Assembly: GCA_947626935.1 (NCBI GenBank)
Contig: CANQUD010000001.1
Span: 34,089-98,088, forward strand
Direction: 5' to 3'
DNA from: an uncultured Clostridia bacterium
Lineage (GTDB): Bacteria > Bacillota > Clostridia > Christensenellales > Borkfalkiaceae
DNA: 64,000 nucleotides
The position numbers and the translations under genes were made by a program. The notes below the pieces were generated by a model. It was not told the DNA's origin and searched no databases. It saw nothing but the letters and a program-made list of their open reading frames with translations. Numbering within the stretch: the stretch's first letter is position 1; each line of letters begins with the position of its first letter. Positions 1 through 53,863 of the stretch are shown here, in pieces.

Positions 1-1535
1 TCGACGAACTGCTCGACATCTTTCCGACCGCCGACATCGGCGACCTCGGCCCCATCCGTGTCTACACGTTTTTGGATCGCAAGCTGCAGCGCAAGGTTGA
101 AGAGGCAGAAGCCGATTCGGACGTCTGTGCGCTTGTCCGAGACAACAGGACGGACGGGTTGAAAGCGTTCTATTCGACATGCGGCGCCCTGAAACGACTT
201 CCCGCCTCTACGTTGAAGCCCCTTCTCGTCTACGGACCCGCCATCGAAGAGGACATCATCTGCCCCGCAACGCCGATCTTGGACGAAAAAACGGACTTCA
301 ACGGGTATTGTCCTGACGATGCGGGCGGCGCAAGCGGCAAATACATGAGCGCACGATACGCGCTTTCGCACAGCGTCAACATTCCCGCCGTCAAGATCCT
401 GAACACGATGGGCTGCGAAAAGGCGGCTGCATACCTCGACAGGATGGGACTGCATGTCGGGGAAGAGGACCTCTCTCTCGCCCTCGCGCTCGGCGGGATG
501 AAGGAAGGTTTTCCGCTCCCCGCACTTGCGGACGGATATGCCGTCTTTGCAAAACAGGGGGTCTATGCGCCCTCAAAAGTCATTTCCCGCATCGAAAACA
601 GCAAGGGAAAAGTCATTTACGAGTACAAACCCCGCGAAAACAGGGTCTTTTCCGAAGAAACGAGCTATCTCATCAACGACATGCTGAAAACTGCCGCCAA
701 GGAAGGAACGGCGAAAAAACTCAAAAATCTCCCCTATGACGTCTGTGCAAAGACGGGGACCGCGGAGGGCAAGAAAGACAATACAGATGCTTATACGATC
801 GCCTATACGTCGGAAGATACCGTAGCGGTCTGGCTCGGGAACAGGGACAACACGGAAATCGGGGCAACGGGCGGAGGGCTTCCCGCGAATCTCGCGCTCG
901 GGATCCTGAAAGAGATCTACGGGGACAGAGCGCCCGCTCCGTTTCCGCCCTGCGACGGCGTGGAAGCTCTCCCGATCGATATGCAGGAATACGAAAAAAA
1001 TCACAAAATTTTGCTCTCCGACCCAAACTCCCCCTTCCTGACAGACAGAAAAGAGCTGTTCAAAAAGAGCTTTGAACCGCTGGAGAGAAGTACGCGCTAT
1101 TCGGCGCCGAAGATCGAAAAACCGACGATTTCCGTCAAAAATGGGACCGTAAGCATAGTACTATGTCAGACAGAGTACTATGATTATGTCATAAAAAGAG
1201 AAAATCGCGGTAAGGAAACCACGATCTACAGCGGGAAATATCAAAGATGTATCAGCGACAATTCCGTAAAGGCGGGCGAAAGTTACCGCTACAGCGTCAC
1301 GCCCTACTATAAAGATATCGAGGGAGAGACCGTCTATCTCCCCCTCGTTCATATCGATCCAAGCGATTCGCTCCCCGAGAATTGGTGGAATCAGAATTTG
1401 ATGATCTCCCTCGAGGATAGAGCTTCTTCAACGAGCGCATCGATGTCGAGTTTCCTCTCCTCTTCCTCGATGAAGGAAAGTTTGGGGTGGATCGCGGGAA
1501 AATCGGGCAAAAAGACGGTGCAGCAGTCCTCATAG
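1..1535 (+). CDS. Penicillin-binding protein (class A type): transpeptidase domain plus C-terminal beta-rich domain; 5' end is outside the window
   Basis: Frame is open from nt 3. SxxK (STLK), SxN (SVN) and KTG (KTGT) motifs occur in the canonical order. The last ~145 nt run antisense to thiI. Confidence 0.85.
   Translation, partial: DELLDIFPTADIGDLGPIRVYTFLDRKLQRKVEEAEADSDVCALVRDNRTDGLKAFYSTCGALKRLPASTLKPLLVYGPAIEEDIICPATPILDEKTDFNGYCPDDAGGASGKYMSARYALSHSVNIPAVKILNTMGCEKAAAYLDRMGLHVGEEDLSLALALGGMKEGFPLPALADGYAVFAKQGVYAPSKVISRIENSKGKVIYEYKPRENRVFSEETSYLINDMLKTAAKEGTAKKLKNLPYDVCAKTGTAEGKKDNTDAYTIAYTSEDTVAVWLGNRDNTEIGATGGGLPANLALGILKEIYGDRAPAPFPPCDGVEALPIDMQEYEKNHKILLSDPNSPFLTDRKELFKKSFEPLERSTRYSAPKIEKPTISVKNGTVSIVLCQTEYYDYVIKRENRGKETTIYSGKYQRCISDNSVKAGESYRYSVTPYYKDIEGETVYLPLVHIDPSDSLPENWWNQNLMISLEDRASSTSASMSSFLSSSSMKESLGWIAGKSGKKTVQQSS
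1154..1190 (+). repeat. Quasi-palindromic dispersed element, copy inside the PBP coding region (two 17-nt units)
   Basis: CATAGTACTATGTCAGA CAGAGTACTATGATTAT. Its first 19 nt are identical to the reverse complement of 51111-51129. Confidence 0.85.
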
Positions 1536-2542
1536 GGCAATGTCGACGTCTCAAAGGTACCGATCTTTTTTGCGACCTCGACGATATCCTCTTTGTCGAA
1601 CCCGATGAGCGGACGCAAAACGGGAAGCCGTACAACGGCGTTCGAGGCCGTCAGTCCCTCGAGCGTCTGGCTCGCGACCTGCCCGAGGCTCTCCCCCGTG
1701 ACGAGGCAGCCCGCCCCCGTTTGATGCGCAAGGCGCTCCGCGATGCGGAACATGAAACGGCGCAAGAGCGTGACATTGAGTTCGGCGGCGCAGTTTCTGT
1801 GGATCTCTTCCTGAATGTGCGTGACGCTCACCGTCGTGAGGCGGGTGACGAGCGTATAATCGGAAAGAAGTTTCGAAAGCGTCACCACCTTTTCCTTGGC
1901 GGCTTCATTGGTATAGGGATAGCTGTGGAAATGGAGCAGTTCGACGGTCATCCCTCGCTTCGCCATCATGTAGCCCGCAACGGGCGAATCGATGCCCCCC
2001 GAGATCAGGAGAAGTCCCTTTCCCGCTGTCGAGACGGGCATTCCATGCGATCCGTCCGTGAAAGAGCCGAAAACAAGCGCTCTGCCGCCTTCACGGATGT
2101 CGATATAGACGGTGTGTTCGGGCGTGTGCACGTCCACTTTCAGAGACGGGAATCGATCCAGAAGTCTGCCGCCGATGCGGGCGCTGATCTCCATGGACGT
2201 GAGCGGATAATGTTTGTCCCCGCGGTGCGTCTCCACTTTGAACGTTCCAGACTGCGGTGCGACGAGCTTTGCGGCGGCAAAGACGCCGTCCTCGTCATTT
2301 TCCACGAGCAGACCTTCCGAGTAAGAATGCACGCCGAACACCTTGGAGATGCGGCGCATGATCTCGTCCGTCATTTCCTCGTCAAATTCGGCGATAAGAT
2401 ACCTTCCGCTCGTGCGGTGGATCTCATGGCGGATGCCTTTCAGGGCTTTTTCAAGGTTGTTCCCAAAGACGCGCTCGAAATAGCCGCGGTTTTTTCCTTT
2501 CAAATGGATCTCCGCATAGCGGATGATGATGACTTTTTCCAT
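1391..2542 (-). CDS. thiI: tRNA 4-thiouridine synthase (tRNA uracil 4-sulfurtransferase) ThiI
   Basis: N-terminus MEKVIIIRYAEIHLKGKNR is typical of ThiI. PP-loop SGGIDSP is present. Start chosen at the in-frame ATG 2542 of ORF 1391..2695. Confidence 0.9.
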   Translation of the reverse strand: MEKVIIIRYAEIHLKGKNRGYFERVFGNNLEKALKGIRHEIHRTSGRYLIAEFDEEMTDEIMRRISKVFGVHSYSEGLLVENDEDGVFAAAKLVAPQSGTFKVETHRGDKHYPLTSMEISARIGGRLLDRFPSLKVDVHTPEHTVYIDIREGGRALVFGSFTDGSHGMPVSTAGKGLLLISGGIDSPVAGYMMAKRGMTVELLHFHSYPYTNEAAKEKVVTLSKLLSDYTLVTRLTTVSVTHIQEEIHRNCAAELNVTLLRRFMFRIAERLAHQTGAGCLVTGESLGQVASQTLEGLTASNAVVRLPVLRPLIGFDKEDIVEVAKKIGTFETSTLPYEDCCTVFLPDFPAIHPKLSFIEEEERKLDIDALVEEALSSREIIKF

Positions 2543-2570
2543 ATGGATCCTCGTGATGCGTTCCGCACGG

Positions 2571-3704
2571 TCATGCGCGGGACTGTAAAACTGTATTTTG
2601 ATATTCTCTTGCGGTCGAATTGAGGATTTCCGCCGCTTCTGTAATCTCCCGCTCCGTTGTGGCGGGCGAAAAACTGCACCGCAGGACGCCGTCAAGGACT
2701 TTTTCCGTATAACCGCACGCCGTCATGACGCGGCTGAAGCGGTTTTTGGAAGAACAGGCGCTACCCGTTCCCATGCACAGACCGCGATCCCAGAGCATGC
2801 GCTGCAGCACCTCTCCGCGCATTCCGACGGCGGAGACGGTGAGGATGTACGGCGACCCCTTTTCGGGAGAAAGTAGCGTAAAAATCTCCCGATCGAGAAG
2901 AGATATTAGCTTTTCCCGCATTTTTCCCAGCCTTTCGAGGTCGGATCTGACGGTTTTGAATTTCTTTTCGGCGGCATAGGCGAACACGACGATGCCGAAC
3001 GTGTTCTCCGTCCCGCTCCGCAGATTCCCTTCCTGTCCGCCCCCGAAGAGATACGGGTCCAAGGCGAGTCCCTTGCGCTTGAAGAGAGCGCCCGTGCCCT
3101 TGAGTCCGCCGATCTTGTGGGCGCTGACCGCATAGAGATCGACTTCCTGCGGCAGGACGAAGGACAATTTCCCGAACGCCTGCACGCCGTCGCTGTGGAA
3201 GAGCGTACGGGGATTTTTTTGCTTGACCGCCCTTGCGATCGCCCCAATGTCGTTGACGGCGCCCGTTTCGTTATTGACATGAACGACGGAGACGAGGCTC
3301 GTCTTTTCATCCACGAGATGCAGGATGCTCTCGCATCTCACGCTTCCGTCCCGCTCCACGGGAGCAAAACGGGGTTCGATCCCGCGATTTTTCAGCTCGT
3401 TGACGCTCGAATAGACCGCTGCATGTTCGCCCGCCGTCGTGACGACGTTTCCCCTCTTTCCGCCCGAAAAGATCGCTTGATTGTCGGCTTCGGTCCCGCA
3501 TGAGGTGAAAATGAGGTCAAATCTTCCCGTCCCGCCCAAGGTTTTCAGGAGAGTTTCCCGCGCTTCGCCGAGTTTTTTGGAAACGGCAAAACCCCCGCCG
3601 TATCTGGCAGAGGGGTTGAAATAAAGATCGGTCGTAAATTCTGCCGCGCTTCGGAGCGCCTCTTCGTCGGGACGGGTCGTGGCGGCATTGTCAAAGTAGA
3701 TCAT
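2571..3704 (-). CDS. Cysteine desulfurase (NifS/IscS family, PLP-dependent)
   Basis: MIYFDNAATT N-terminus, SAHKIGG PLP-lysine motif, GSACSS active-site loop. It lies directly upstream of thiI. Confidence 0.9.
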   Translation of the reverse strand: MIYFDNAATTRPDEEALRSAAEFTTDLYFNPSARYGGGFAVSKKLGEARETLLKTLGGTGRFDLIFTSCGTEADNQAIFSGGKRGNVVTTAGEHAAVYSSVNELKNRGIEPRFAPVERDGSVRCESILHLVDEKTSLVSVVHVNNETGAVNDIGAIARAVKQKNPRTLFHSDGVQAFGKLSFVLPQEVDLYAVSAHKIGGLKGTGALFKRKGLALDPYLFGGGQEGNLRSGTENTFGIVVFAYAAEKKFKTVRSDLERLGKMREKLISLLDREIFTLLSPEKGSPYILTVSAVGMRGEVLQRMLWDRGLCMGTGSACSSKNRFSRVMTACGYTEKVLDGVLRCSFSPATTEREITEAAEILNSTAREYQNTVLQSRA

Positions 3705-4306
3705 TCTCTCTCAAATTTGTTGATGCCCGCCGCCCGCACGAGGTATTCGAGGAGCATCTGTCTGCATTCTAAAATGTACAGGGTCTTTCCGAGCGATCCG
3801 CCGACAAGCAGGTAGATGAACTGCTTGTCCTCCGCGGGATACTTGTTCGGCGTCAAGAACTTCGGCTTATTGCCCTGCAGTCCGCGCAGGACATTGTCGT
3901 AGGAAGGTTTCTCGCAATATCCGATCTTCAGGATGGAATCCGCCGAGATCGTTCCGAAATACTTCCTCGATCTGCCGTTAAAGACCTTGGTGATACGGAG
4001 TTCGTCCTCGACAAAGGTATAGTCGTAACTGAGGTTGAATCTCTTTTTGATGAACCAAAAGACAACGCCGCCGCCCACAAAGGACAGGATAAAGATGAGC
4101 CAGACGCCGATGATGACGACTTTTTGGACGGTCTCCAGTTCTTCGTTTCCGATCACGCCCTGAAAGACGGACGTCGCAAAGAAAGCGGTCACGCCCGCGA
4201 CGACGAAACAGAGGATGGAAAGGACGAGAAAAAGGATATAGAACTTCTCTTCCGTCGCGGCGCGGCTGCAGACGGCGCTCTCTTCATATAAAAGGTCCCG
4301 TTGCAT
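3701..4306 (-). CDS. Hypothetical membrane protein (two N-terminal TM helices plus a soluble C-terminal domain)
   Basis: 201-aa ORF. Its start overlaps the carB stop and its stop overlaps the desulfurase start. Two hydrophobic helices are visible. I do not recognise the family. Confidence 0.6.
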   Translation of the reverse strand: MQRDLLYEESAVCSRAATEEKFYILFLVLSILCFVVAGVTAFFATSVFQGVIGNEELETVQKVVIIGVWLIFILSFVGGGVVFWFIKKRFNLSYDYTFVEDELRITKVFNGRSRKYFGTISADSILKIGYCEKPSYDNVLRGLQGNKPKFLTPNKYPAEDKQFIYLLVGGSLGKTLYILECRQMLLEYLVRAAGINKFERE

Positions 4307-7300
4307 CAGAATTCCACCTTCCCCTCATAAATTTTTCTGACATTGCCCGTCAGCGTAACGGAGCCGTCCGCATCGCAATGGACGGTCAGGTCCCCTCCGC
4401 GTACCTTGACGGTGATATCTGTACCCGATTTGCACAAGCCGTTCGACACGCAGGCGAATGCCGCAGCCGCCGCCCCCGTGCCGCTCGAGTACGTCTCACC
4501 GTTCCCCTGCTCCCACGTGCGCATCTTGATGGTCGCCTCGTTGACGACTCTGACGGCGCCGATGTCGGGCTTCTCCGCAAAGTTCTTGTTCTCCCCGATC
4601 GCGTCGGCGATGTCCTTCAGGGAGACTTCCTCCACGCGGTCGCAGAATACGATGTAGTTCTGTCTGCCGAGGTCGACGAGCACCGATCTCTCCGATTCGA
4701 CGCCCTTCCTGGGCAGTTTCCCCGCGGGGAGCTTCTTCAGACGCGGTTTCCCGAGTTCCACGCTTGCCGATGTGACGACGCCGCCGAAGGAGAATACTTT
4801 GAGTTCCTTCACTCCGTTCATCGTCTCGATCGTCATGGTCTCCTTTGGGACGATGCCCTTCTCGTACAGATATTTGGCTGCGCAGCGGATGGCATTGCCC
4901 GCGATCGCCCCCTCGGAGCCGTCTTGGTTGAAAATGCGCATCTTCGCATCCGCGACCTGCGATCTGGTCAGAATGACGATGCTGTCCCCGCCGATCCCGT
5001 AGTGTCGGTTGACGAAGTTCACGGCGAGGGACTCGGGACAGGTGATCTTCTCTTCCATGTCCTCGAAGAAGATGAAGTCATTCCCGCACGATTCGAGCTT
5101 GGTGAAGTCGAGCTTGGTCCGCTCGGTGCGGAGATGGTTGATATCCACAAGCTCGGTATTATTTTCGGTAAATTTGCTCGCGATGATGTCACAGAGCGCG
5201 TTTGCCGTATCGAGAGAGGTCAGGACGGTGATGCCGAGCAGGATCGCATGATGGTGCAGTTCGATATAGTCCTGAATGGAATCGACGTCCGTCTTGCCCG
5301 TATAGACGATGTAATCGATCTTTCCCTCGTCCATGAGCTTGCAGACCTGCTTCGTCGCCTTGAGACGTTCGACGACGGTGACGTCTGCGCCGAGGTCGGA
5401 GATGACCTTCGCCGTGCCCGCGGTCGCATACAGGCGGCAGCCGAGATCGGCAAATTTCTTTGCGATGGAGACAAGTTCGGGCTTATCCTGATCGTTGACG
5501 GTGAAATAGACGCCGACGGGCTTCTCCTTTGTCGGATGGCACATCTTGAAGCCCGCGGAGACGAGTCCCTTGAAGAGCGCTTCCTCGATTGTCTTGCCGA
5601 TGCCGAGCACCTCGCCCGTGGACTTCATTTCTGGCCCGAGCTGGGAATTGACGTCGTTGAGTTTTTCGAAGGAGAACACGGGGACTTTGACTGCAACGTA
5701 GGGAGAATCGGGATAGAGTCCCGTTCCGTAACCGAGTTTTTTGAGTTTTGCCCCCGCCATGATCTTGGTGGCAAGCTCTACCATGGGCACCCCCGTCACC
5801 TTGGAGATGTACGGGATCGTGCGGCTCGCACGGGGGTTGACTTCGATGACGTAGAGCTGGTTCCGATAGATGAGATATTGGATATTGATGAGACCCTTTG
5901 TCTTGAGTTCGAGCGCAAGTTGCGTGGAGACTTCCACGATCCTCGCCTTCATCGCATCGGAAAGATGGTAGGGCGGATAGACGGCGATGGAGTCGCCCGA
6001 ATGCACGCCCGCGCGTTCGACGTGTTGCATGACCCCGGGGATCAGCACGTCGACGCCGTCCGAAATGGCATCGACCTCAAGCTCGCTCCCCATCAGGTAT
6101 TTGTCGCAGAGGACGGGGTTCTCGATGCGCTGCGAGAGGATCACGTCCATATAGCGGGAAATGTCGTTTTCGGTGAAGGCGATCGTCATGTTCTGCCCGC
6201 CGATGACATAGCTCGGGCGGAGCAGGACGGGATAGCCGAGCGTCTCCGCGGCGCGGATCGCTTCCTCTTTCGTCATGACGGTCAGCCCCTTGGGACGGGA
6301 AATGGAGAATCGTTCCAAAAGTTCGTCGAAGCGTTCCCGATCCTCCGCCATGTCCACACTGTCGGCGCTTGTCCCGAGGATCCGCACCCCCGTCTTTGCG
6401 AGGTAGGCGCAGAGCTTGATCGCCGTCTGTCCCCCGAAGGTGATGACGACGCCGTACGGCTTCTCCACGTCGATGACATTCTGCACATCCTCGGGCGTAA
6501 GAGATTCGAAATAGAGCCTGTCCGCCGTATCGAAATCGGTGGAGACCGTCTCGGGATTGTTGTTGATAATGATGACTTCGTATCCGAGCTGTTTGAGCGT
6601 CCAGACGCAATGGACGGAAGAATAGTCGAATTCGATCCCCTGCCCGATGCGGATGGGACCCGAACCGATGACGATGACCCTCTTTTTGCGGGAACGTTCG
6701 ACAAATGGCTTTGCCTCGTCGTGCGCGGGGTCGTCGTACGTCGAATAGAAGTACGGGGTCGCGGCGCTGAACTCGGCGGCGCAGGTGTCGACCATCTTAA
6801 AGACAGCCCGTCTGTGCGCCGGCAGCTTCTGCCCCGAGAGTCCGAGGAGCGTCTTATCGGTAAATCCGAGCCGTTTCCCTTCCAGATACTCTGCGCGGGT
6901 GAGCTTTTTCCCCGTGATGTGCTTCTCGTAGCGGATGAGGTTGACAAACTTTTCGAGGAACCACTCGTCGATCTTGGTGACGCCGTAGATCTCATCGACG
7001 GGGATCCCCTTCTTGAGCGCCGCATAGACGGCGAAGAGCCGTTCGTCGGTCATCTTCGTGATCTCGATGCGGAGCTGTTCCTGCGTCATCTTTTCGAACT
7101 TCGGGTGGTCGAGCGTCTCGAGGGAGATCTCTGCGCCGCGGACTGCTTTCATGATCGCCTGTTCGAAGGACGATCCGATCGCCATGACTTCCCCCGTCGC
7201 CTTCATACGGGATCCCAACGTCCGCTTTGCGTACAAAAATTTATCAAAGGGCCACTTGGGGAGCTTCACGACGACATAGTCGATCGCGGGTTCGAAGCAG

Positions 7301-8331
7301 GCGTACGTCTTTCCCGTGACGTCGTTCTTGATCTCGTCGAGGGTGTAGCCGAGAGCGATCTTGGTCGCAACTTTTGCGATCGGATAGCCCGTCGCCTTGC
7401 TCGCAAGCGCCGAGGAGCGCGAAACGCGGGGGTTGACTTCGATCACGGCGTACTCGAAGCTGTCGGGATTCAGGGCGAACTGGCAGTTGCATCCCCCCTC
7501 GATGCCCAGCTCTGCGATGATGTTGAGAGATGCCGTGCGGAGCATCTGGTATTCCTTATCGGAGAGAGTGACGGCGGGTGCGATGACGACGGAATCGCCC
7601 GTGTGGATCCCGACGGGGTCGACGTTCTCCATGGAGCAGACGGTGATGACATTGCCCTTGCCGTCGCGGAGAACTTCAAATTCGATCTCCTTCCAGCCGC
7701 CGATGTACTTCTCGATGAGCACCTGCGTGATGGGAGAAAGCATCAGCCCGTTGTGTGCGATGAGCCGAAGCTCTTCCTCGTCATAGGCGACGCCCCCGCC
7801 CGCACCGCCGAGCGTGAACGCGGGACGGACGATGACGGGATAGCCGAGTTCTTCGGCGATCTTGACGCAATCGTTTTCGGTATAGGCGATATCGGAGGGA
7901 ACGACGGGTTCGGAGATCTTTTGCATGGTCTCCTTGAAGAGTTCTCTGTCCTCTGCCCGATCGATGGCATCGAGCTTGGTACCGATGAGTTTGACCCCCC
8001 ATTCGTCCAGAAAACCGCTCTTTGCGAGCTTGCAGCCCATCGTAAGCCCCGTCTGTCCGCCCAGAGAGGCGAGCAGGGAATCGGGACGCTCCTTGATGAT
8101 GATGCGCTTCAAACTCTCCTCGGTGAGCGGTTCGAGGTAGATCTCGTCGGCGAGCATCTTGTCCGTCATGATGGTGGCGGGGTTAGAGTTGCAGAGGACG
8201 ACGTTCATGCCCGCATCCTTGAGGACACGGCAAGCCTGTGCTCCCGCATAGTCGAATTCCGCAGCTTGTCCGATGACGATAGGACCCGAGCCGATGACAA
8301 GTACTTTCCTGATATCGCTTCTCAATGGCAT
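4306..8331 (-). CDS. carB: Carbamoyl-phosphate synthase large subunit fused to a C-terminal DapF-like (diaminopimelate epimerase fold) domain
   Basis: The first ~1070 aa are a full-length CarB (two ATP-grasp halves, MGS-like domain). The last 269 aa (nt 4306-5115) align along their length with the window's own DapF. Confidence 0.9.
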   Translation of the reverse strand: MPLRSDIRKVLVIGSGPIVIGQAAEFDYAGAQACRVLKDAGMNVVLCNSNPATIMTDKMLADEIYLEPLTEESLKRIIIKERPDSLLASLGGQTGLTMGCKLAKSGFLDEWGVKLIGTKLDAIDRAEDRELFKETMQKISEPVVPSDIAYTENDCVKIAEELGYPVIVRPAFTLGGAGGGVAYDEEELRLIAHNGLMLSPITQVLIEKYIGGWKEIEFEVLRDGKGNVITVCSMENVDPVGIHTGDSVVIAPAVTLSDKEYQMLRTASLNIIAELGIEGGCNCQFALNPDSFEYAVIEVNPRVSRSSALASKATGYPIAKVATKIALGYTLDEIKNDVTGKTYACFEPAIDYVVVKLPKWPFDKFLYAKRTLGSRMKATGEVMAIGSSFEQAIMKAVRGAEISLETLDHPKFEKMTQEQLRIEITKMTDERLFAVYAALKKGIPVDEIYGVTKIDEWFLEKFVNLIRYEKHITGKKLTRAEYLEGKRLGFTDKTLLGLSGQKLPAHRRAVFKMVDTCAAEFSAATPYFYSTYDDPAHDEAKPFVERSRKKRVIVIGSGPIRIGQGIEFDYSSVHCVWTLKQLGYEVIIINNNPETVSTDFDTADRLYFESLTPEDVQNVIDVEKPYGVVITFGGQTAIKLCAYLAKTGVRILGTSADSVDMAEDRERFDELLERFSISRPKGLTVMTKEEAIRAAETLGYPVLLRPSYVIGGQNMTIAFTENDISRYMDVILSQRIENPVLCDKYLMGSELEVDAISDGVDVLIPGVMQHVERAGVHSGDSIAVYPPYHLSDAMKARIVEVSTQLALELKTKGLINIQYLIYRNQLYVIEVNPRASRTIPYISKVTGVPMVELATKIMAGAKLKKLGYGTGLYPDSPYVAVKVPVFSFEKLNDVNSQLGPEMKSTGEVLGIGKTIEEALFKGLVSAGFKMCHPTKEKPVGVYFTVNDQDKPELVSIAKKFADLGCRLYATAGTAKVISDLGADVTVVERLKATKQVCKLMDEGKIDYIVYTGKTDVDSIQDYIELHHHAILLGITVLTSLDTANALCDIIASKFTENNTELVDINHLRTERTKLDFTKLESCGNDFIFFEDMEEKITCPESLAVNFVNRHYGIGGDSIVILTRSQVADAKMRIFNQDGSEGAIAGNAIRCAAKYLYEKGIVPKETMTIETMNGVKELKVFSFGGVVTSASVELGKPRLKKLPAGKLPRKGVESERSVLVDLGRQNYIVFCDRVEEVSLKDIADAIGENKNFAEKPDIGAVRVVNEATIKMRTWEQGNGETYSSGTGAAAAAFACVSNGLCKSGTDITVKVRGGDLTVHCDADGSVTLTGNVRKIYEGKVEF

Positions 8332-8332
8332 C

Positions 8333-9406
8333 TCACTTGTCCTCCTTTGCGGCTTTCATGTTCGTGACGAATCTGTCAAAGAGGAAGTTCGCGTCCTGCG
8401 GTCCGCTGCAGGCTTCGGGATGGAATTGCACAGTAAAGGCGTTCACAGCGGGATAGTCAACCCCCTCGCAGGTGCCGTCGTTGCAGTTGACGAAGGAGAG
8501 TTCCCCTTTTGCCTTTAAGCTGTCGGAGACGACTTCGTAGCCGTGATTTTGGGAAGTGATGTACACTCTGCCCGTCTCCAAATGCTTGACGGGCTGGTTG
8601 GCGCCGCGATGCCCGTATTTCATCTTGCGGGTCGTACCGCCCATCGCGAGTGCAAAGAGCTGATGCCCGAGGCAGATGCCGAAGATGGGAAGTTTCCCGA
8701 TCAATTTACGGATATTTTTGATGATCTCCGTATTTTCGGCGGGATCCCCGGGACCGTTGGCAAGCATGACGCCGTCTGCCTTGAGGCGGAACACCTCTTC
8801 GGCGGGATAGTGGGCGGGAACACAGATGACGCGGCAATTCCGCTTCAAAAGTTCATGTTCGATGTTGTGTTTGACGCCGAAGTCATAGAGAACAACAGTG
8901 TATTTCCCGTACTCGCCCGAGACCGTGATCTCGTCGGAAGTCACGGACTCAACGGCGTTTTTGACTCTGTACGCCCGCAGACGTTCGAAATCGGAGAAAG
9001 GCTTGAAGGAGATCGCGGCGTTCATGACCCCCGCTTCCCGCACAGTGCGGGCGATCTCACGAGTATCGACGCCGTAGATCGCGGGGATGCCCTCTCGCTT
9101 GAGATATTCTTCCAAAGTCAGCTTGCAGCGGAAGTTGGAAGGGGTCGTGCACCGTTCCCGAACGACATAGGCGCTCGCATGGCACTTGATGCTCTCAAAG
9201 TCCTCGGGGATGACGCCGTAGTTCCCGATGAGCGGGAAGGTCTGCATGATGATCTGACCGTAATAGCTGGGATCGGTGAGCGTCTCGATGTACCCCGTCA
9301 TTCCCGTCGTGAAAACAAGCTCCCCGACGGTCTCCCGCTCTGCGCCGAAAGATCTTCCCTCGAACACACGCCCGTTCTCAAGCGTTAAATATGCCTTTTT
9401 CTCCAT
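8333..9406 (-). CDS. carA: Carbamoyl-phosphate synthase small (glutaminase) subunit
   Basis: TGMTGYIETLTDPSYYGQI motif. Class I amidotransferase ICLGHQ nucleophile elbow. Adjacent to carB. Confidence 0.95.
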   Translation of the reverse strand: MEKKAYLTLENGRVFEGRSFGAERETVGELVFTTGMTGYIETLTDPSYYGQIIMQTFPLIGNYGVIPEDFESIKCHASAYVVRERCTTPSNFRCKLTLEEYLKREGIPAIYGVDTREIARTVREAGVMNAAISFKPFSDFERLRAYRVKNAVESVTSDEITVSGEYGKYTVVLYDFGVKHNIEHELLKRNCRVICVPAHYPAEEVFRLKADGVMLANGPGDPAENTEIIKNIRKLIGKLPIFGICLGHQLFALAMGGTTRKMKYGHRGANQPVKHLETGRVYITSQNHGYEVVSDSLKAKGELSFVNCNDGTCEGVDYPAVNAFTVQFHPEACSGPQDANFLFDRFVTNMKAAKEDK

Positions 9407-9505
9407 AAGCTCTCCCTGTGTAAAAAAGTCAAAGTTCGGGCAGTCAAAGCCTCAAAAGGGCAAAATTTTTTTGCCGTTTTCGGCGGCAAATTCTCTATCG
9501 TTCCG

Positions 9506-9535
9506 ATTATACCACAAACGCCGCTGCTCCGTCAA
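9506..9535 (-). promoter_or_regulatory. Sigma-70-type promoter for carAB
   Basis: Minus strand reads TTGACG, 18 nt, TATAAT, about 100 nt upstream of the carA ATG. Confidence 0.6.
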
Positions 9536-9617
9536 GCGTAGGCGCGAAATTCCGCAAATCCGTTTCTGCTCAATTTATTGCTTGAAATATTCAACATATT
9601 GCGAAAGAATGGTTATT

Positions 9618-9638
9618 TATGCCTGACATAGTACTATG
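9618..9638 (-). repeat. Quasi-palindromic dispersed element, copy upstream of the carA promoter
   Basis: Plus strand reads TATGCCTGACATAGTACTATG. 16 nt are identical to the 51114-51129 copy. Confidence 0.85.
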
Positions 9639-9671
9639 CAAATCGTTCAAAACGGCATTTTATTATGGAAT

Positions 9672-9693
9672 CGGCGGCGCTGAAGCGCCGCCG
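9672..9693 (-). terminator. GC-rich hairpin downstream of the 9697..10161 gene
   Basis: CGGCGGCGC-tgaa-GCGCCGCCG is a perfect 9-bp stem. The flanking U-tract is weak. Confidence 0.45.
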
Positions 9694-29086: not shown

Positions 29087-29100
29087 CTTTTTCCTCCTGT

Positions 29101-29118
29101 TATGTCTGACATAGTACT
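29101..29118 (-). repeat. Quasi-palindromic dispersed element, truncated copy between the T-box terminator and the thrS SD
   Basis: Plus strand reads TATGTCTGACATAGTACT. Confidence 0.8.
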
Positions 29119-29130
29119 TCGCATAACGCG

Positions 29131-29346
29131 AAAAAAATAAAAATCGTCCTTAAAATCCCCTCTTTGGGTATTTAAGGACGCAAATTTTCTCTTTGCGCGG
29201 TTCCACCTTAATTGCTCTCGAAAGAGCCGCTTTCAGATTGTTTCCGATAAAATAAAGCGGTTTCGCCTTCCGACGCTCCATGCGGGCATTTCAGCCGTGT
29301 GTCCGCTCTCTGGGAAGAAGCCTTCGGCGCTACTTGTCTTTAAGTG
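29131..29346 (-). promoter_or_regulatory. T-box leader (tRNA-sensing riboswitch) of thrS with terminator
   Basis: Minus strand carries AGAGA in stem I and a candidate specifier GAA-ACC-G (Thr). The T-box sequence is AAUUAAGGUGGAACCGCG (plus-strand 29206-29217). The terminator is CGTCCTTAAA...TTTAAGGACG plus a U-run (29131-29180). Confidence 0.85.
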
Positions 29347-29352
29347 CTTCTT

Positions 29353-32696: not shown

Positions 32697-32806
32697 ATAG
32701 GGATTTAGAATTAAGCGGTTTGGCGGTTAGTCAAACCGCATTTTCGTACCGCAAAAGCGGGCGAACGTTTCTTTTGAGGGGGAGCAGGATAGGGATTGCA
32801 GGGAAA

Positions 32807-32938
32807 TTATTTTTTCTTTTTCGGTGCTCCGTTGTTTTTTTCGTAGTATGCCGCAATCGCAGCCTTTTGCTTTTTCCGTGCCTCGGGCGTTTTGGCTTTT
32901 ACATAGTTGCTTTTCTTTTTTTCTTTATTAAAGAACAT
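32807..32938 (-). CDS. Possible 43-aa lysine-rich small protein
   Basis: MFFNKEKKKSNYVKAKTPEARKKQKAAIAAYYEKNNGAPKKKK. The ATG overlaps the last codons of the upstream 255-aa gene in another frame. It is below the ORF-track length cut-off. Confidence 0.3.
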   Translation of the reverse strand: MFFNKEKKKSNYVKAKTPEARKKQKAAIAAYYEKNNGAPKKKK

Positions 32939-33695
32939 CTTGTTCGCCCTCCATGCTTATGACCGCTTCAAAGTCGCATTCGTCACAGTAAGCCTGCAAC
33001 TGCTCTATCAGTCTCTTACTCGGCTTGAATTTTTGTTTGATGATATATCCGTCTTGCATATCACATAGCGGCGTTGCCATGATTTTTTTCTCGTTGATAT
33101 CATAGAATACGCAAAAATTGTCCGAATTCATCCAATATCCGTAAAAATAATCAAAAGCAAAAATCTTGTGCCGTTCATTTGTAGATCGGCTTCTGAAATA
33201 AAGGATATGGTGCGAACAGCAAGCGTTCGAAAATACATCCAGCTCGCCGTCGAAAACCAATGTCTCTCGTTTGTATAATGGCAACATGCAGTATTCGTTC
33301 AGCAGTCCGCGAATATAAACGGATAGTTCTTGCGCCGTTAACATGATTTCCGACGTCTCTATTTCATCAAAGACGGAAATGTTTTCTTTTGAAGGACGTA
33401 TCCAGATAGATTCACCCAATTCGCCTAAATTTTCATCATTGAAATACACCCTGTCAATCACGGTGTTTACGGCGTGATAGATGTTTTCACTGTCTGCTCG
33501 ATTATATTCGTCTTTTAATATATTCTCGATTTGGCTGCGTCTTTCCTTGCGCACTTCCACAAGCGTGGGGATGAGCTTGTTCAAAAGCGCATTTTTATTT
33601 GATTTGCCGTTTTTGATGAATTTGAAGCGCAGCGCGTCGATTTCCAAAATGTTCGCCACAAAGGACGAAACCTTCACCTTGATTTTGTCGTTCAT
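32928..33695 (-). CDS. Islet protein: putative ribbon-helix-helix (RHH) N-terminus plus WYL-like C-terminal domain (tentative regulator)
   Basis: 255 aa with an AGGAGTGA SD. The N-terminus IKVKVSSFVANILEIDALRF...NALLNKLIPTLVE fits a strand-helix-helix pattern. The C-terminal ILYFRSRSTNERHKIFAFDYFYGYWMNSDNFCVFYDINEKKIMATPLCDMQD resembles a WYL domain. Confidence 0.6.
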   Translation of the reverse strand: MNDKIKVKVSSFVANILEIDALRFKFIKNGKSNKNALLNKLIPTLVEVRKERRSQIENILKDEYNRADSENIYHAVNTVIDRVYFNDENLGELGESIWIRPSKENISVFDEIETSEIMLTAQELSVYIRGLLNEYCMLPLYKRETLVFDGELDVFSNACCSHHILYFRSRSTNERHKIFAFDYFYGYWMNSDNFCVFYDINEKKIMATPLCDMQDGYIIKQKFKPSKRLIEQLQAYCDECDFEAVISMEGEQDVL

Positions 33696-33715
33696 TCGGT
33701 CACTCCTATGATTAA

Positions 33716-33744
33716 ATTATACAAACTGTCTACCAAAATGTCAA
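33716..33744 (-). promoter_or_regulatory. Consensus promoter for the 255-aa islet gene
   Basis: Minus strand reads TTGACA, 17 nt, TATAAT. A GGTAGACA half-site sits in the spacer. Confidence 0.7.
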
Positions 33745-33771
33745 GAAAATTCCGATAAACAATCAATATTG

Positions 33772-33799
33772 TCTACCGTAAAATTATGAATACGGTAGA
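33772..33799. promoter_or_regulatory. Inverted-repeat operator between the divergent islet promoters
   Basis: TCTACCGTA, 10 nt, TACGGTAGA is a perfect 9-bp inverted repeat. A third GTCTACC copy lies at 33728-33734. Confidence 0.6.
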
Positions 33800-33809
33800 T
33801 AGAATTTTG

Positions 33810-33838
33810 TTGAATTACAAGATTTTTCCTGCTATAAT
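33810..33838 (+). promoter_or_regulatory. Promoter for the toxin-like / acidic gene pair
   Basis: TTGAAT, 17 nt, TATAAT. Confidence 0.7.
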
Positions 33839-33858
33839 ATAAATGCAGGTGGAGCGAA

Positions 33859-34275
33859 ATGCGATATCACTTGACAAAATTTATGCGAGGTATTAAAATG
33901 AGCATAGTTGGTTTTTTGCTCAAGCCGAAAAAGGAAATGGCGAAAAAAGATACGCGGTATGTAAAGGTCGGTAAATACTATCTAACTTCCCATGCACAAA
34001 ATCGGATCGTTCAAAGGGAAAGGACTATGGATAAAGTCGATGTTTTGGACAATCTGTTTACAAAGCCCAATGCCATTACACAAATAAAATACAATAAGAA
34101 TGGAAAACCCTCATATGACCGTGTGGGCAAGAGAATTACGACAAGTATCAATCCAACTAACAACAATGTTGCGACTTGCCGCCCCGTAAGCAAAAAAGAG
34201 ATGAAACAATTCGGCTTGACCGATGTCGGAAAAGGAGGAAAAAGGAAATATGTTAAGCAAAAGTTTGGAAAGTAA
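33859..34275 (+). CDS. Basic islet protein, DUF4258/BrnT-like RNase-toxin candidate (tentative)
   Basis: 138 aa, very Lys/Arg-rich. The motif YYLTSHAQNRIVQRERTMDKVDVLDNL matches the H-A-x-x-R-x-x-x-R pattern I associate with DUF4258-type toxins. GGTGGAG SD. An alternative start is at 33898. Confidence 0.6.
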   Translation: MRYHLTKFMRGIKMSIVGFLLKPKKEMAKKDTRYVKVGKYYLTSHAQNRIVQRERTMDKVDVLDNLFTKPNAITQIKYNKNGKPSYDRVGKRITTSINPTNNNVATCRPVSKKEMKQFGLTDVGKGGKRKYVKQKFGK

Positions 34276-34525
34276 ATTCACGCCGAGAGCAAAAGAAGAG
34301 GCTAAAAAACTTTTAGCCGAAATGAATATAACGGAGTTGAACGACGACAATCTCTATGAGGTTGAAGTTGAGCTTGACACAAGGGTAAACGGATTGGTAA
34401 CGATGGATGAAAGTGAACACCAACCGATAGATCATGAACTCTTGGAGATCTACGATACACTGACGGATATTATTCTGGAGCACGAAGAAGAGATCGATTT
34501 CCTGAACAGGCTGTTTTTGGAATAA
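34250..34525 (+). CDS. Acidic islet protein, antitoxin/immunity candidate
   Basis: 91 aa, Glu/Asp-rich. AAGGAGG SD. The ATG lies 26 nt inside the preceding gene. Confidence 0.55.
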   Translation: MLSKSLESKFTPRAKEEAKKLLAEMNITELNDDNLYEVEVELDTRVNGLVTMDESEHQPIDHELLEIYDTLTDIILEHEEEIDFLNRLFLE

Positions 34526-34567
34526 AAGAAAAAGGGAACAGAGCGGTAGCAAAAAAAATCGGGGTGA

Positions 34568-34819
34568 ATCCTGGGAACGACAAAGGTTAAGTTTTCACAG
34601 TCGGCGGTTGATTTTATTGCGAAGTATAAGATCGAAGAGTTTGGAATAATGGGCGAAATCAACGAAGATATGTTTTATAACATTATATGCTACGCCCGAC
34701 GACTACGATTCCTTTTTGCAACCCATGAGATTGACCCACAAATCGTTTTTGACGAAGAAACATCCAAAGCGGCAGGTGAATTTACAGCGGAATACGACAG
34801 TGTGGTTTTAAGGGACTAG
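34568..34819 (+). pseudogene. Open frame without a good start (first ATG at 34649); possible gene remnant or 56-aa acidic protein
   Basis: 84 stop-free codons begin right after a TGA. KVKFSQSAVDFIAKYKIEEFGIMGEINEDMFYNIICY... reads like coding sequence upstream of the first ATG. Confidence 0.3.
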
Positions 34820-34954
34820 ATGTTTGACTTGGATGACCTTAACCGCCGTTTGGAATTGCGGAAAACGAATTAACTTCCTTGACTCGCCCAGTCGTCTGTA
34901 AGGTGTATTCCTATATTAAATTAAGATTTTGTTTGATCCCCTATGCACCCCCGC

Positions 34955-34969
34955 TTTCAGGCGGTTTTT
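34955..34969 (+). repeat. Right direct repeat of the islet
   Basis: TTTCAGGCGGTTTTT, preceded by a degenerate copy of the terminator's left arm (CCCCCGC). Confidence 0.8.
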
Positions 34970-34979
34970 TTTGTGTTTT

Positions 34980-35007
34980 CATAGTATTATGCCACGCATA
35001 GTACTAT
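34980..35007. repeat. Quasi-palindromic dispersed element, two 17-nt units, 10 nt from the islet's right direct repeat
   Basis: CATAGTATTATGCCACG CATAGTACTAT. Confidence 0.8.
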
Positions 35008-35047
35008 TAAAAAGGTCAAATTTCGAGTCAAAAAGGGCGGTTTTCGG

Positions 35048-51007: not shown

Positions 51008-51041
51008 GAAAAGGGCGCAAACCCAATTTGGGATCGCGCCC
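51008..51041 (-). terminator. clpB rho-independent terminator
   Basis: Minus strand reads GGGCGC-gatCCCAAattTGGGttt-GCGCCC followed by TTTTCC. Confidence 0.7.
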
Positions 51042-51108
51042 TGTTTCCGTTGCACATTGGAGCCTTAAAAAGGTTTTTGGGGGCAAATTTTCGTCTTTTT
51101 CACGGTAT

Positions 51109-51129
51109 TATGTCTGACATAGTACTATG
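51109..51129 (-). repeat. Quasi-palindromic dispersed element, copy between the clpB stop and its terminator
   Basis: Plus strand reads TATGTCTGACATAGTACTATG. It contains the perfect 12-nt palindrome CATAGTACTATG. Confidence 0.85.
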
Positions 51130-51153
51130 AAAAGCTTCGATATTCGCATTAAA

Positions 51154-53751
<2,598 letters not shown>

Positions 53752-53863
53752 GTTCTTCTCCTCCTTTGCGGTTCTTCGCCGCTCTCTGTGTTCGCATTTA
53801 TTATACCGCTTTTTTGTCCCCGTCAAACAGGGAGACCGCATCCTTTTTGCTCATGAAAATGCG

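Follow-up and report, generated by a model that had tools for sequence, protein, structure and literature searches.

The element and its copies in the window

The window analysed here, a 64-kb stretch of DNA from an uncultured Clostridia bacterium, contains a short quasi-palindromic element that recurs at five places, with its best copy just downstream of clpB. The clpB gene, recognised by its Pfam ClpB domains, is followed by a terminator hairpin (−30.7 kcal/mol, z −5.6), and the 21-mer TATGTCTGACATAGTACTATG (positions 51109–51129, plus strand) lies between the clpB stop codon and this hairpin. A preliminary description of the same DNA had noted both the gene context and the five-locus recurrence; the context is correct by Pfam and by folding, and the recurrence was confirmed, with none of the five loci expected by chance. 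With up to three mismatches, the 21-mer matched at 1154–1174 (minus strand; 1162–1182 on the plus strand), 9618–9638, 29101–29121 and 51109–51129, and 100 dinucleotide shuffles gave no match. The 12-mer palindrome CATAGTACTATG, with up to two mismatches, gave seven matches where 0.3 were expected and added sites at 34980 and 34997, in agreement with a diverged double copy that had been placed near 34980–35007. A soft 28-bp weight matrix run over the 64 kb returned exactly five loci and no other convincing match. Two exact segments previously given as 16 nt are both real, but their extents are 18 nt at 29101–29118 and 16 nt at 9623–9638. The "second degenerate 17-nt unit" of the same description is also genuine and corresponds to a weaker second half-site or dyad (CATAAT.., CAGAGTAC..).

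The A/T-rich flanks of the clpB copy, phased as described below, span roughly 51045–51185, and the V-ATPase operon downstream of this copy has a promoter of its own (TTGACA-17-TACAAT). The copy upstream of carA is followed by a separate and near-perfect carA promoter (TTGACG-18-TGnTATAAT) and, judging from the signals around it, probably lies in untranscribed DNA. At thrS, the order of T-box, core and ribosome-binding site is also kept in four further loci (L014, L038, L064 and L083). The score of the thrS T-box lies below the Rfam gathering score of 93, which is why a default Rfam scan is silent on it; T-boxes in this Christensenellales-type clade seem divergent. The copy inside the open reading frame (ORF) of a penicillin-binding protein (PBP) is translated as SIVLCQTEYYDY and uses a CAGAG variant that sidesteps a TAA stop codon; it occupies the same codons in L050, L117, L119 and L121. 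The diverged copy is symmetric, scoring equally on both strands, and sits at the right edge of a low-GC patch (GC 0.45–0.49 versus ~0.56 elsewhere) whose ORFs (255, 138 and 100 aa) have no Pfam match and which may be a small island or a phage remnant.

Table 1. Copies of the element and other features of the window
Feature	Position	Strand	Sequence	Context
Best 28-bp core copy	51106..51133	−	TTTTCATAGTACTATGTCAGACATAATA	27 nt past the clpB stop, in the clpB 3′ untranslated region; weight-matrix score 46.2
Core copy	9615..9642	−	TTTGCATAGTACTATGTCAGGCATAAAT	Spacer between the upstream gene's terminator hairpin (9672–9693) and the carA promoter
Core copy	29098..29125	−	TATGCGAAGTACTATGTCAGACATAACA	Between the thrS T-box leader/terminator and the thrS ribosome-binding site
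Two-unit copy	1150..1186	+	CATAGTACTATG-TCAGA-CAGAGTACTATG	Inside the PBP ORF
Diverged two-unit copy	34976..35012		CATAGTATTATG-CCACG-CATAGTACTATT	Just after a terminator, between convergent genes
clpB ORF	51154..53841	−
Hairpin after clpB	~51008–51041
carA promoter	9535..9506
carA-leader hairpin	9470–9490		TTTGCCGTTTTCGGCGGCAAA	Hairpin, then T-run
thrS T-box leader	29349..29171	−		Rfam RF00230, 58.7 bits, E = 2e-12
PBP ORF	72..1535	+
thiI	1391..2695	−
Carbamoyl-phosphate synthase large subunit (carB) ORF	4306–8331	−		1341 aa
Long antisense ORF	4378–8367	+		1329 aa, opposite carB
Low-GC patch	~32700–35000

Consensus, helical phasing and orientation across genomes

The preliminary description had seen the core of the element, which proves far larger and wider: it is conserved across a clade, occurs inside coding sequences (CDS), follows an orientation rule and has flanks phased at 10.5 bp. 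When contigs of one genome per species were scanned, at least 120 stretches carried the 18-mer AGTACTATGTCAGRCAKA; they come from some 100 further genomes, which excludes a local assembly artefact. Among the matches listed, all but one (probably a chance match) come from uncultured gut Clostridia of Christensenellales type; carriers include Ca. Borkfalkia, Ca. Gallimonas, 'Christensenella sp.' metagenome-assembled genomes and the isolate Pumilibacter intestinalis. The motif is conserved across genomes of 38–59% GC, and there is no doubt that the motif and its statistics are real. Viral contigs yielded merely five singleton matches, on which ground a viral origin was rejected. Restriction avoidance of AGTACT was rejected as well, since 13 occurrences were observed versus 2.8 expected. 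No tRNA association of the motif was found, and searches of the literature by motif strings and topic terms returned no description of the element.

The core spans ~28 bp and is asymmetric (tTTTGCAT-AGTACTATG-N5-CATAAT); leaving the flanks unforced lengthens the consensus to tTTTGCAT-AGTACTATGTCAGACATA-ATA. Among 40 non-seed copies, conservation is highest in GTACTATG and ACATA(A) and moderate in the TTTGCAT extension, and the central 5 bp vary freely (TCAGA, CGTGA, CCAGA, TCTGA). Conserved arms and a free centre thus make the unit an asymmetric dyad, GTACTATG-N5-CATA(A/G)TA, whose left half is strong and whose right half is weaker. Tandem arrays of units at 21–25 bp spacing occur in L115, L037, L011, L072 and L051. 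Copies are found in intergenic DNA and inside genes, mostly at gene ends. In loci fetched by way of the candidate protein introduced below, we counted ~10 copies in ~146 kb, promoter copies excluded, or 1 per ~15 kb, in agreement with the five per 64 kb of the window. Overall the spacing is even, at ~1 per 13–15 kb, and extrapolation from the observed density gives an estimated 100–200 sites per genome. A xerC-like chromosomal integrase gene repeatedly carries the motif (L051 4930–7625, L131 ~6870, L132 ~6992, L133 ~7311); in L051 this gene lies beside hflX and is flanked by motif copies, and the low-GC genomes carry their copy within it.

Beyond the core, A/T tracts are arranged in helical register. 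In an alignment of 87–89 non-redundant sites, with positions counted relative to the central base, A/T peaks fall at about −17, −27, −36.5, −47.5, −58 and −69 upstream and at about +16.5, +27, +37.5, +47.5 and +59 downstream, with fitted periods of 10.41±0.11 bp and 10.67±0.09 bp, respectively. The oscillation amplitudes are 0.087 and 0.071, whereas 200 random-anchor sets averaged 0.008 and did not exceed 0.019, and single sequences carry the phasing too (Mann-Whitney p = 7e-29). The tracts reach about ±60–70 bp, the whole element measuring ~130–150 bp, and they follow the A-then-T pattern, under which DNA curves and its minor groove becomes narrower. Seventy intergenic families show the phasing, as do 13 families deep in CDS, and a 3-nt component is absent. 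Coding for amphipathic helices was rejected as the source of the period, since copies in non-coding DNA and in genes for unrelated proteins all have the phase fixed relative to the motif. A 10.5-bp phasing is a property of duplex DNA, and we therefore take the element, with considerable confidence, to be a DNA-level protein-binding or bending element, bent or wrapped around a sequence-specific core; phased tracts of this kind read as the signature of DNA bent or wrapped on protein.

Copies inside genes are kept at orthologous codons: in miaA of 13 species (...STMSDII..TRNYAKRQ), in a polytopic membrane protein of 9, in glmS of 5 (VLCQTEYIQIVACGT) and in the PBP of 5. Reading frames that would meet the TAA of the motif use the CAGAG or CATAT variant instead. 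The proteins that carry a copy have no residues inserted relative to their homologues; thus the motif is accommodated within the protein, and mobile insertion is ruled out. Together, copies at orthologous codons and stop-avoiding variants indicate that selection acts on the DNA.

How are the copies oriented? Taking CATAGTACTATG-TCAGA-CATAA as the sense orientation, we counted 42 sense versus 4 antisense copies in called CDS. Such counts are approximate because the self-trained codon-model gene caller was crude and missed some genes (thiI, rimK, a YkvI-like gene); two of the four antisense copies (L045, L046) belong to a locus family whose downstream gene was missed by the caller, and the other two were not rechecked. 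A hand tally of tandem intergenic contexts gave about 36 sense versus 5 antisense copies, and convergent-gene spacers hold about 12–15% of the intergenic copies. The orientation of the copies, whose analysis relative to genes the preliminary description had suggested, is almost always that of local transcription, along which the strong half-site precedes the weak one. An orientation set by replication is disfavoured: at the PBP loci of the window, L119 and L121, the PBP copy is opposed to another copy 3.2–8.5 kb away, each being sense to its own gene. The upstream stop codon typically lies 0–30 nt from the core, and within the motif TAG and TAA occur in two reading frames. An approximate detector found a terminator-like hairpin within 160 nt upstream of 32 of 119 copies, and some copies lie just before terminators.

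Other observations concern the genes of the window. The carA leader (~100 nt from promoter to carA) contains an attenuator-like hairpin, which may belong to the PyrR or arginine type. The carB ORF carries a C-terminal diaminopimelate epimerase (DapF) domain (PF01678, E = 2.9e-39, aa ~1077–1196) and therefore appears to encode a CarB-DapF fusion. The PBP and thiI ORFs converge with a 145-nt overlap as called (1391–1535), which is either a real 3′ overlap or the result of one misplaced stop codon. Very long antisense ORFs, such as the one opposite carB, are common and therefore make ORF length useless for gene calling in this genome.

A PadR-like membrane protein as candidate binder

What binds the element? 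The motif, its distribution, its orientation and phasing, and a conserved site at the promoter of a candidate gene are observed; the binder, and what its complex does, are inferred. When neighbouring genes were clustered, they proved to have unrelated housekeeping functions, with one recurrent DNA-binding protein: in seven loci (L033, L044, L045, L046, L053, L071 and L093) the gene of a 573-aa PadR-like protein has a divergent promoter region that contains the motif. The N-terminus of this protein is a PadR domain (PF03551, E = 5e-19). Its AlphaFold2 model comprises a winged helix-turn-helix with one dimerisation helix (aa 17–127), one unbroken 164-residue helix (aa 177–340; block-averaged predicted local distance difference test score, pLDDT, mostly ~90 or higher) and four transmembrane helices (aa 441–567); as modelled, the linker helix would be ~24 nm long in the clade of the window. 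By sequence, the closest solved structures are PadR-s2 proteins (1XMA, E = 1.7e-26; LmrR), and the winged-helix domain is 35–45% identical to solved members of this group. Foldseek also ranked PadR-s2 proteins at the top, and RTP (1f4k) was retrieved below many PadR proteins with a probability of 0.99, a template-modelling score (TM-score) of 0.47 and ~18% identity. PadR-s2 dimers have the topology and dimer organisation of RTP and bind inverted repeats, the recognition helices of PadR-s2 and RTP dimers entering two successive major grooves and the wings lying over the adjacent minor grooves (PMC3506622).

The family is large, with 1273 and 873 matches for two members, labelled just 'PadR family transcriptional regulator'. 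Members come from Ca. Gallimonas, Christensenellales or Clostridia and measure about 515–894 aa, most of them 545–790. Across 40 homologues the DNA-binding domain is almost invariant, the mean column identity of the whole alignment being 36%; such near-invariance would be anticipated for a single domain that has to go on recognising a large set of fixed sites. In a distant member in L016 (3340–5052, minus strand) the long helix is replaced by a long acidic, apparently disordered region, so the linker varies in kind as well as in length.

Further loci were fetched through the protein: L126–L128 (44–48% identity) and the distant L130–L133, from genomes of 38–46% GC; L016 also carries a distant member but came through the motif scan. 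The palindrome (T)ACTATG-N5-(C/A)ATAGTA lies 2–9 bp upstream of the TTGACA −35 box of the PadR-like gene in all seven protein-fetched genomes and in L016, and the palindrome takes the same place in the readable motif-selected loci that contain the gene. The protein-fetched loci hold further dispersed copies, for example inside mutL and a xerC-like gene; the distant genome L130, by contrast, has not kept the thrS site. Autoregulation classically shows itself in a conserved site at the regulator's own promoter. As to gene neighbourhood, the high-GC clade (L126–L129) has the order valS, ABC transporter, YkvI-like membrane protein (divergent), PadR-like gene, ROK-family gene and rho. In the low-GC clade (L130–L133) the PadR-like gene neighbours a YgjP-like protease and a VTT/DedA-domain protein, with mutS-mutL-miaA in three of the four loci.

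On this evidence, we slightly favour the PadR-like membrane protein as the binder. The earlier suggestion of a site for an unknown dimeric DNA-binding protein is thereby strengthened twice, by the palindromic dyad with its variable centre, helically phased flanks and one copy in a probably untranscribed spacer, and by a candidate of the PadR winged-helix family that has the palindrome beside its own −35 box in every genome examined. Several points weigh against this assignment. The promoter site could belong to a different protein that regulates the PadR-like gene. The canonical PadR operator is ATGT-N8-10-ACAT (PMC3506622), whereas the ATGT/ACAT spacing here is 3 bp, a geometry that therefore differs from that of characterised family members. 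The 64-kb window does not contain the candidate gene, so that its presence in this genome is presumptive, and a single dimer alone does not explain the ±60–70 bp phasing or the TTTGCAT extension. Finally, the orientation rule has exceptions (for example L019, and position 21882 of L126), and the gene calls on which it rests are crude.

Possible roles, rival explanations and known systems

What would the complex look like? In the model that we propose, one PadR/RTP-fold dimer would bind the asymmetric dyad, with its recognition helices in the TATG/CATA major grooves (±5) and its wings over the flanking GTAC/ATAC (±10). The central 5 bp would remain uncontacted, which fits their observed variability. 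The phased A/T ladder would extend the register of the dimer outward and, taken together with the 21–25 bp arrays, suggests that further dimers may add on one face of the DNA; alternatively, the DNA may curve around an oligomer whose members are joined through their long helices. Loci bound by this integral membrane protein would be kept at the membrane. The sites could thus tether the chromosome to the membrane, or they could form an RTP/Ter-like, direction-dependent nucleoprotein block. The strong-then-weak layout and the co-orientation with genes suggest a direction-dependent complex, whose orientation would be set so that sense transcription meets the permissive face.

That the element provides genome-wide docking sites for a membrane-anchored PadR/RTP-fold protein is a proposition to which we give about even weight. 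The further step, that these sites serve as a tether or polar barrier and not in ordinary regulation, is tentative, an architectural or polar-barrier role appearing the most likely and classical promoter control less so. Also tentative is the broader idea that Christensenellales may possess an unrecognised chromosome-organising system, built from a stalked membrane PadR/RTP-fold protein on ~100–200 phased, transcription-oriented sites. Its complexes would tether the nucleoid, or bar RNA polymerase or replication forks moving against genes, and the requirement for sites would be strong enough to be written into the CDS of essential genes. Sequence-specific chromosome-organising sites (parS; Noc-binding sites, NBS; SlmA-binding sites, SBS; matS; Ter; FtsK-orienting polar sequences, KOPS) are known for few model bacteria, and none of them is known for this abundant gut order. 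A high-information motif overlaid on CDS, with nucleosome-like phasing, transcription polarity and a candidate winged-helix link of the RTP fold to the membrane, is unusual. If the link holds, it would offer a testable handle on chromosome attachment or insulation in uncultured or hard-to-grow bacteria, a new example of DNA mechanics selected inside genes, and a natural genome-wide system of polar protein-DNA barriers. The 28-mer and the ~130-aa domain would then serve as probes, and Pumilibacter intestinalis as a cultured carrier of the motif.

Could the same protein simply be a regulator? The PadR-like protein may be a membrane one-component sensor with a large regulon, the copies being conventional operators or roadblocks. 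One-component regulators bound to the membrane have precedents, the site in the protein's own promoter overlaps the −35 region, and at thrS, pyrE, dfrA and carA copies lie 11–30 nt upstream of start codons. We nonetheless consider an ordinary regulon rather unlikely: the copies keep no fixed distance to promoters (the carA promoter is ~85 bp from its copy), many are in 3′ untranslated regions, convergent spacers or mid-gene, their neighbours share no function beyond housekeeping, their spacing is even, and flanks phased over ±60–70 bp are atypical for simple operators. The phasing could instead mark a positioned strong gyrase site, or a site at which some other nucleoid protein wraps DNA; the core would then position gyrase or that architectural protein, the arms would wrap around it, and supercoils would be relieved or insulated at the ends of transcription units, making the element a functional analogue of the repetitive extragenic palindromic (REP) sequences of bacterial interspersed mosaic elements (BIME-2) and of the Mu strong gyrase site (SGS). 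The E. coli gyrase motif spans ~130 bp, with a ~36-bp centre and two arms of 10.75-bp GC/AT periodicity 'resembling nucleosomes' (PMC6379681). Gyrase sites of S. pneumoniae show 10-bp phasing and a GxxC cut, the core of our element contains GTAC, and gene 3′ ends and convergent spacers hold many of the copies. However, the arms are not mirror-symmetric about GTAC, the only GNNC (r = −0.28; best centres −5, at 0.84, and +0.25, at 0.78), and the A/T peaks run 2–3 bp out of phase with the E. coli consensus at every candidate centre (PMC6379681 supplement). Among the pairs −4G/+8C, −2A/+6T and +1G/+4C, only the last is present, positions −4 and −2 being C and T. Moreover, the readout of DNA by gyrase is indirect, with no known requirement for an almost invariant core of 20–28 bp, and a two-fold symmetric enzyme would leave the transcription-polar orientation unexplained. 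Cleavage at GTAC was rejected because the symmetry and phase tests failed; the element is probably not a direct gyrase site, and we regard this whole line of explanation as improbable.

An RNA-level element, whether a binding or cleavage site in mRNA or the target of an antisense RNA, would account for the strong sense orientation in CDS and in 5′ and 3′ untranslated regions, and the thrS copy does lie in a transcribed leader just before the ribosome-binding site. It is nevertheless very improbable, since the 10.5-bp phasing comes with no 3-nt or RNA rationale, at least one copy of the window lies between a terminator and a promoter, the 32 of 119 copies noted above follow a terminator-like hairpin, and there is no consistent fold (z = −1.4, +1.0 and −0.5 for the common form). 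Rfam at its gathering threshold gave no match to the motif in the window and seven loci, and a short upstream ORF from an internal AUG was rejected because it is not conserved between species. We give as little credence to a REP-like or mobile element, a recombination site or a promoter. Quasi-palindromic, dispersed, often at gene ends and of REP-like density (~1 per 13 kb), the copies had been proposed to be REP-like elements or targets of a RAYT/IS200-type enzyme, but this proposal fails on CDS copies that leave protein length unchanged, on flanks that are unrelated in sequence and on the lack of a consistent hairpin, which only two-unit copies form; no transposase genes were present among the neighbouring genes examined. 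The recombination site proposed alongside finds no positive evidence: TTATGT resembles the inner part of Xer arms, but the CATA-TATG arm spacing is 4 bp versus 6–8 bp in Xer-type sites, and gene-co-oriented copies, being mostly direct repeats, would be hazardous if a recombinase acted on them. A Xer/dif-like site was thus rejected for its arm spacing, and the L051 integrase is the chromosomal xerC-like one, not a mobile one. As to promoters, TTTGCA-17-TAATAN and CATAAT resemble hexamers, yet the T at position 6 of the −10 box is not conserved, the −35 position is barely conserved, canonical promoters are found elsewhere, and copies occur before terminators and between convergent genes; other promoter variants (TACTAT/CATAAT as −10, sporulation sigma, sigma-54, T7-like) were rejected because their spacings misfit.

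How does the element, read as a docking site of the PadR-like protein, compare with known systems? In logic it comes nearest to RTP-Ter, Noc-NBS, SlmA-SBS and MatP-matS, in DNA mechanics to the gyrase motif and to nucleosome-positioning sequences, and in distribution to REP/BIME; in having a core with phased tracts tolerated in genes, it comes nearest to the uptake signal sequences (USS) of Pasteurellaceae. RTP is a protein of 122 aa with about 9 sites. The candidate would resemble it in its predicted PadR-s2/RTP winged-helix fold with a single C-terminal dimerisation helix, and the sites resemble Ter in joining a strong part to an adjacent weaker part, in their polar use and in the copy at the protein's own promoter; RTP is autoregulated via such a site, and its polar barriers arise from a strong and a weak site (PMC10331603). 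The RTP co-crystal DNA CTATGAACATAATGTTCATAG also ends in CTATG...CATAG, but these arms are 11 bp apart there and 5 bp apart here. Unlike soluble RTP, the candidate is membrane-anchored and ~570 aa long, and whereas RTP sites lie near the terminus and are replication-oriented, those described here are dispersed and transcription-oriented. A fork trap has few, terminus-clustered, replication-oriented sites; this element occurs about once per 13–15 kb, on many contigs.

With Noc, which recruits DNA to the membrane, and with SlmA and MatP, the system would share tens to hundreds of high-information palindromic sites that also occur inside genes and follow no regulon logic; the SlmA site GTGAGTACTCAC has the AGTACT centre in common with the motif. 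It differs in the protein family (PadR versus ParB, TetR or MatP), in the link to the membrane, provided here by integral transmembrane helices and a long helix, and in its asymmetric, transcription-oriented sites with phased A/T tracts. To the 16-bp parS-type and NBS-type palindromes bound by ParB-family proteins, TGTTNCACGTGAAACA and ATTTCCCGGGAAAT, the motif is unrelated in sequence. The gyrase motif, Mu SGS and REP-BIME-2 offer the closest footprint, ~130–140 bp with arms of ~10.5–10.75-bp periodicity around a centre, and they also match in their preference for transcription-unit ends and in REP-like density; in contrast to them, the present element has an almost invariant asymmetric core, copies in CDS, and arms that are off-phase and not centred on GTAC. 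REP/BIME sequences, mobilised by RAYT (Y1 transposase) genes, are strictly extragenic and form a stable imperfect hairpin in single strands, whereas our element has 13 coding families and its common copies fold no better than shuffles.

Operators of PadR and LmrR are likewise ATGT/ACAT-rich inverted repeats beside the regulator's own promoter, but the core here is ATGT-CAG-ACAT, with a 3-bp spacer instead of 8–10 bp, the sites are genome-wide instead of one or two, and the regulator has a long linker and four transmembrane helices. Pasteurellaceae USS combine a core with phased A/T tracts, are tolerated in certain reading frames and are conserved within the family; they are ~10–20 times denser and carry their phased tracts on a single side, and no cytoplasmic DNA-binding protein dedicated to them is known. 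Because defining features fail in each comparison, the element belongs to none of the RTP-Ter, Noc/SlmA/MatP, gyrase, REP/BIME or USS classes. What sets it apart among dispersed chromosomal protein sites is a membrane-integral PadR-fold candidate, a phasing that extends over ~140 bp and includes coding DNA, and a polarity that follows transcription.

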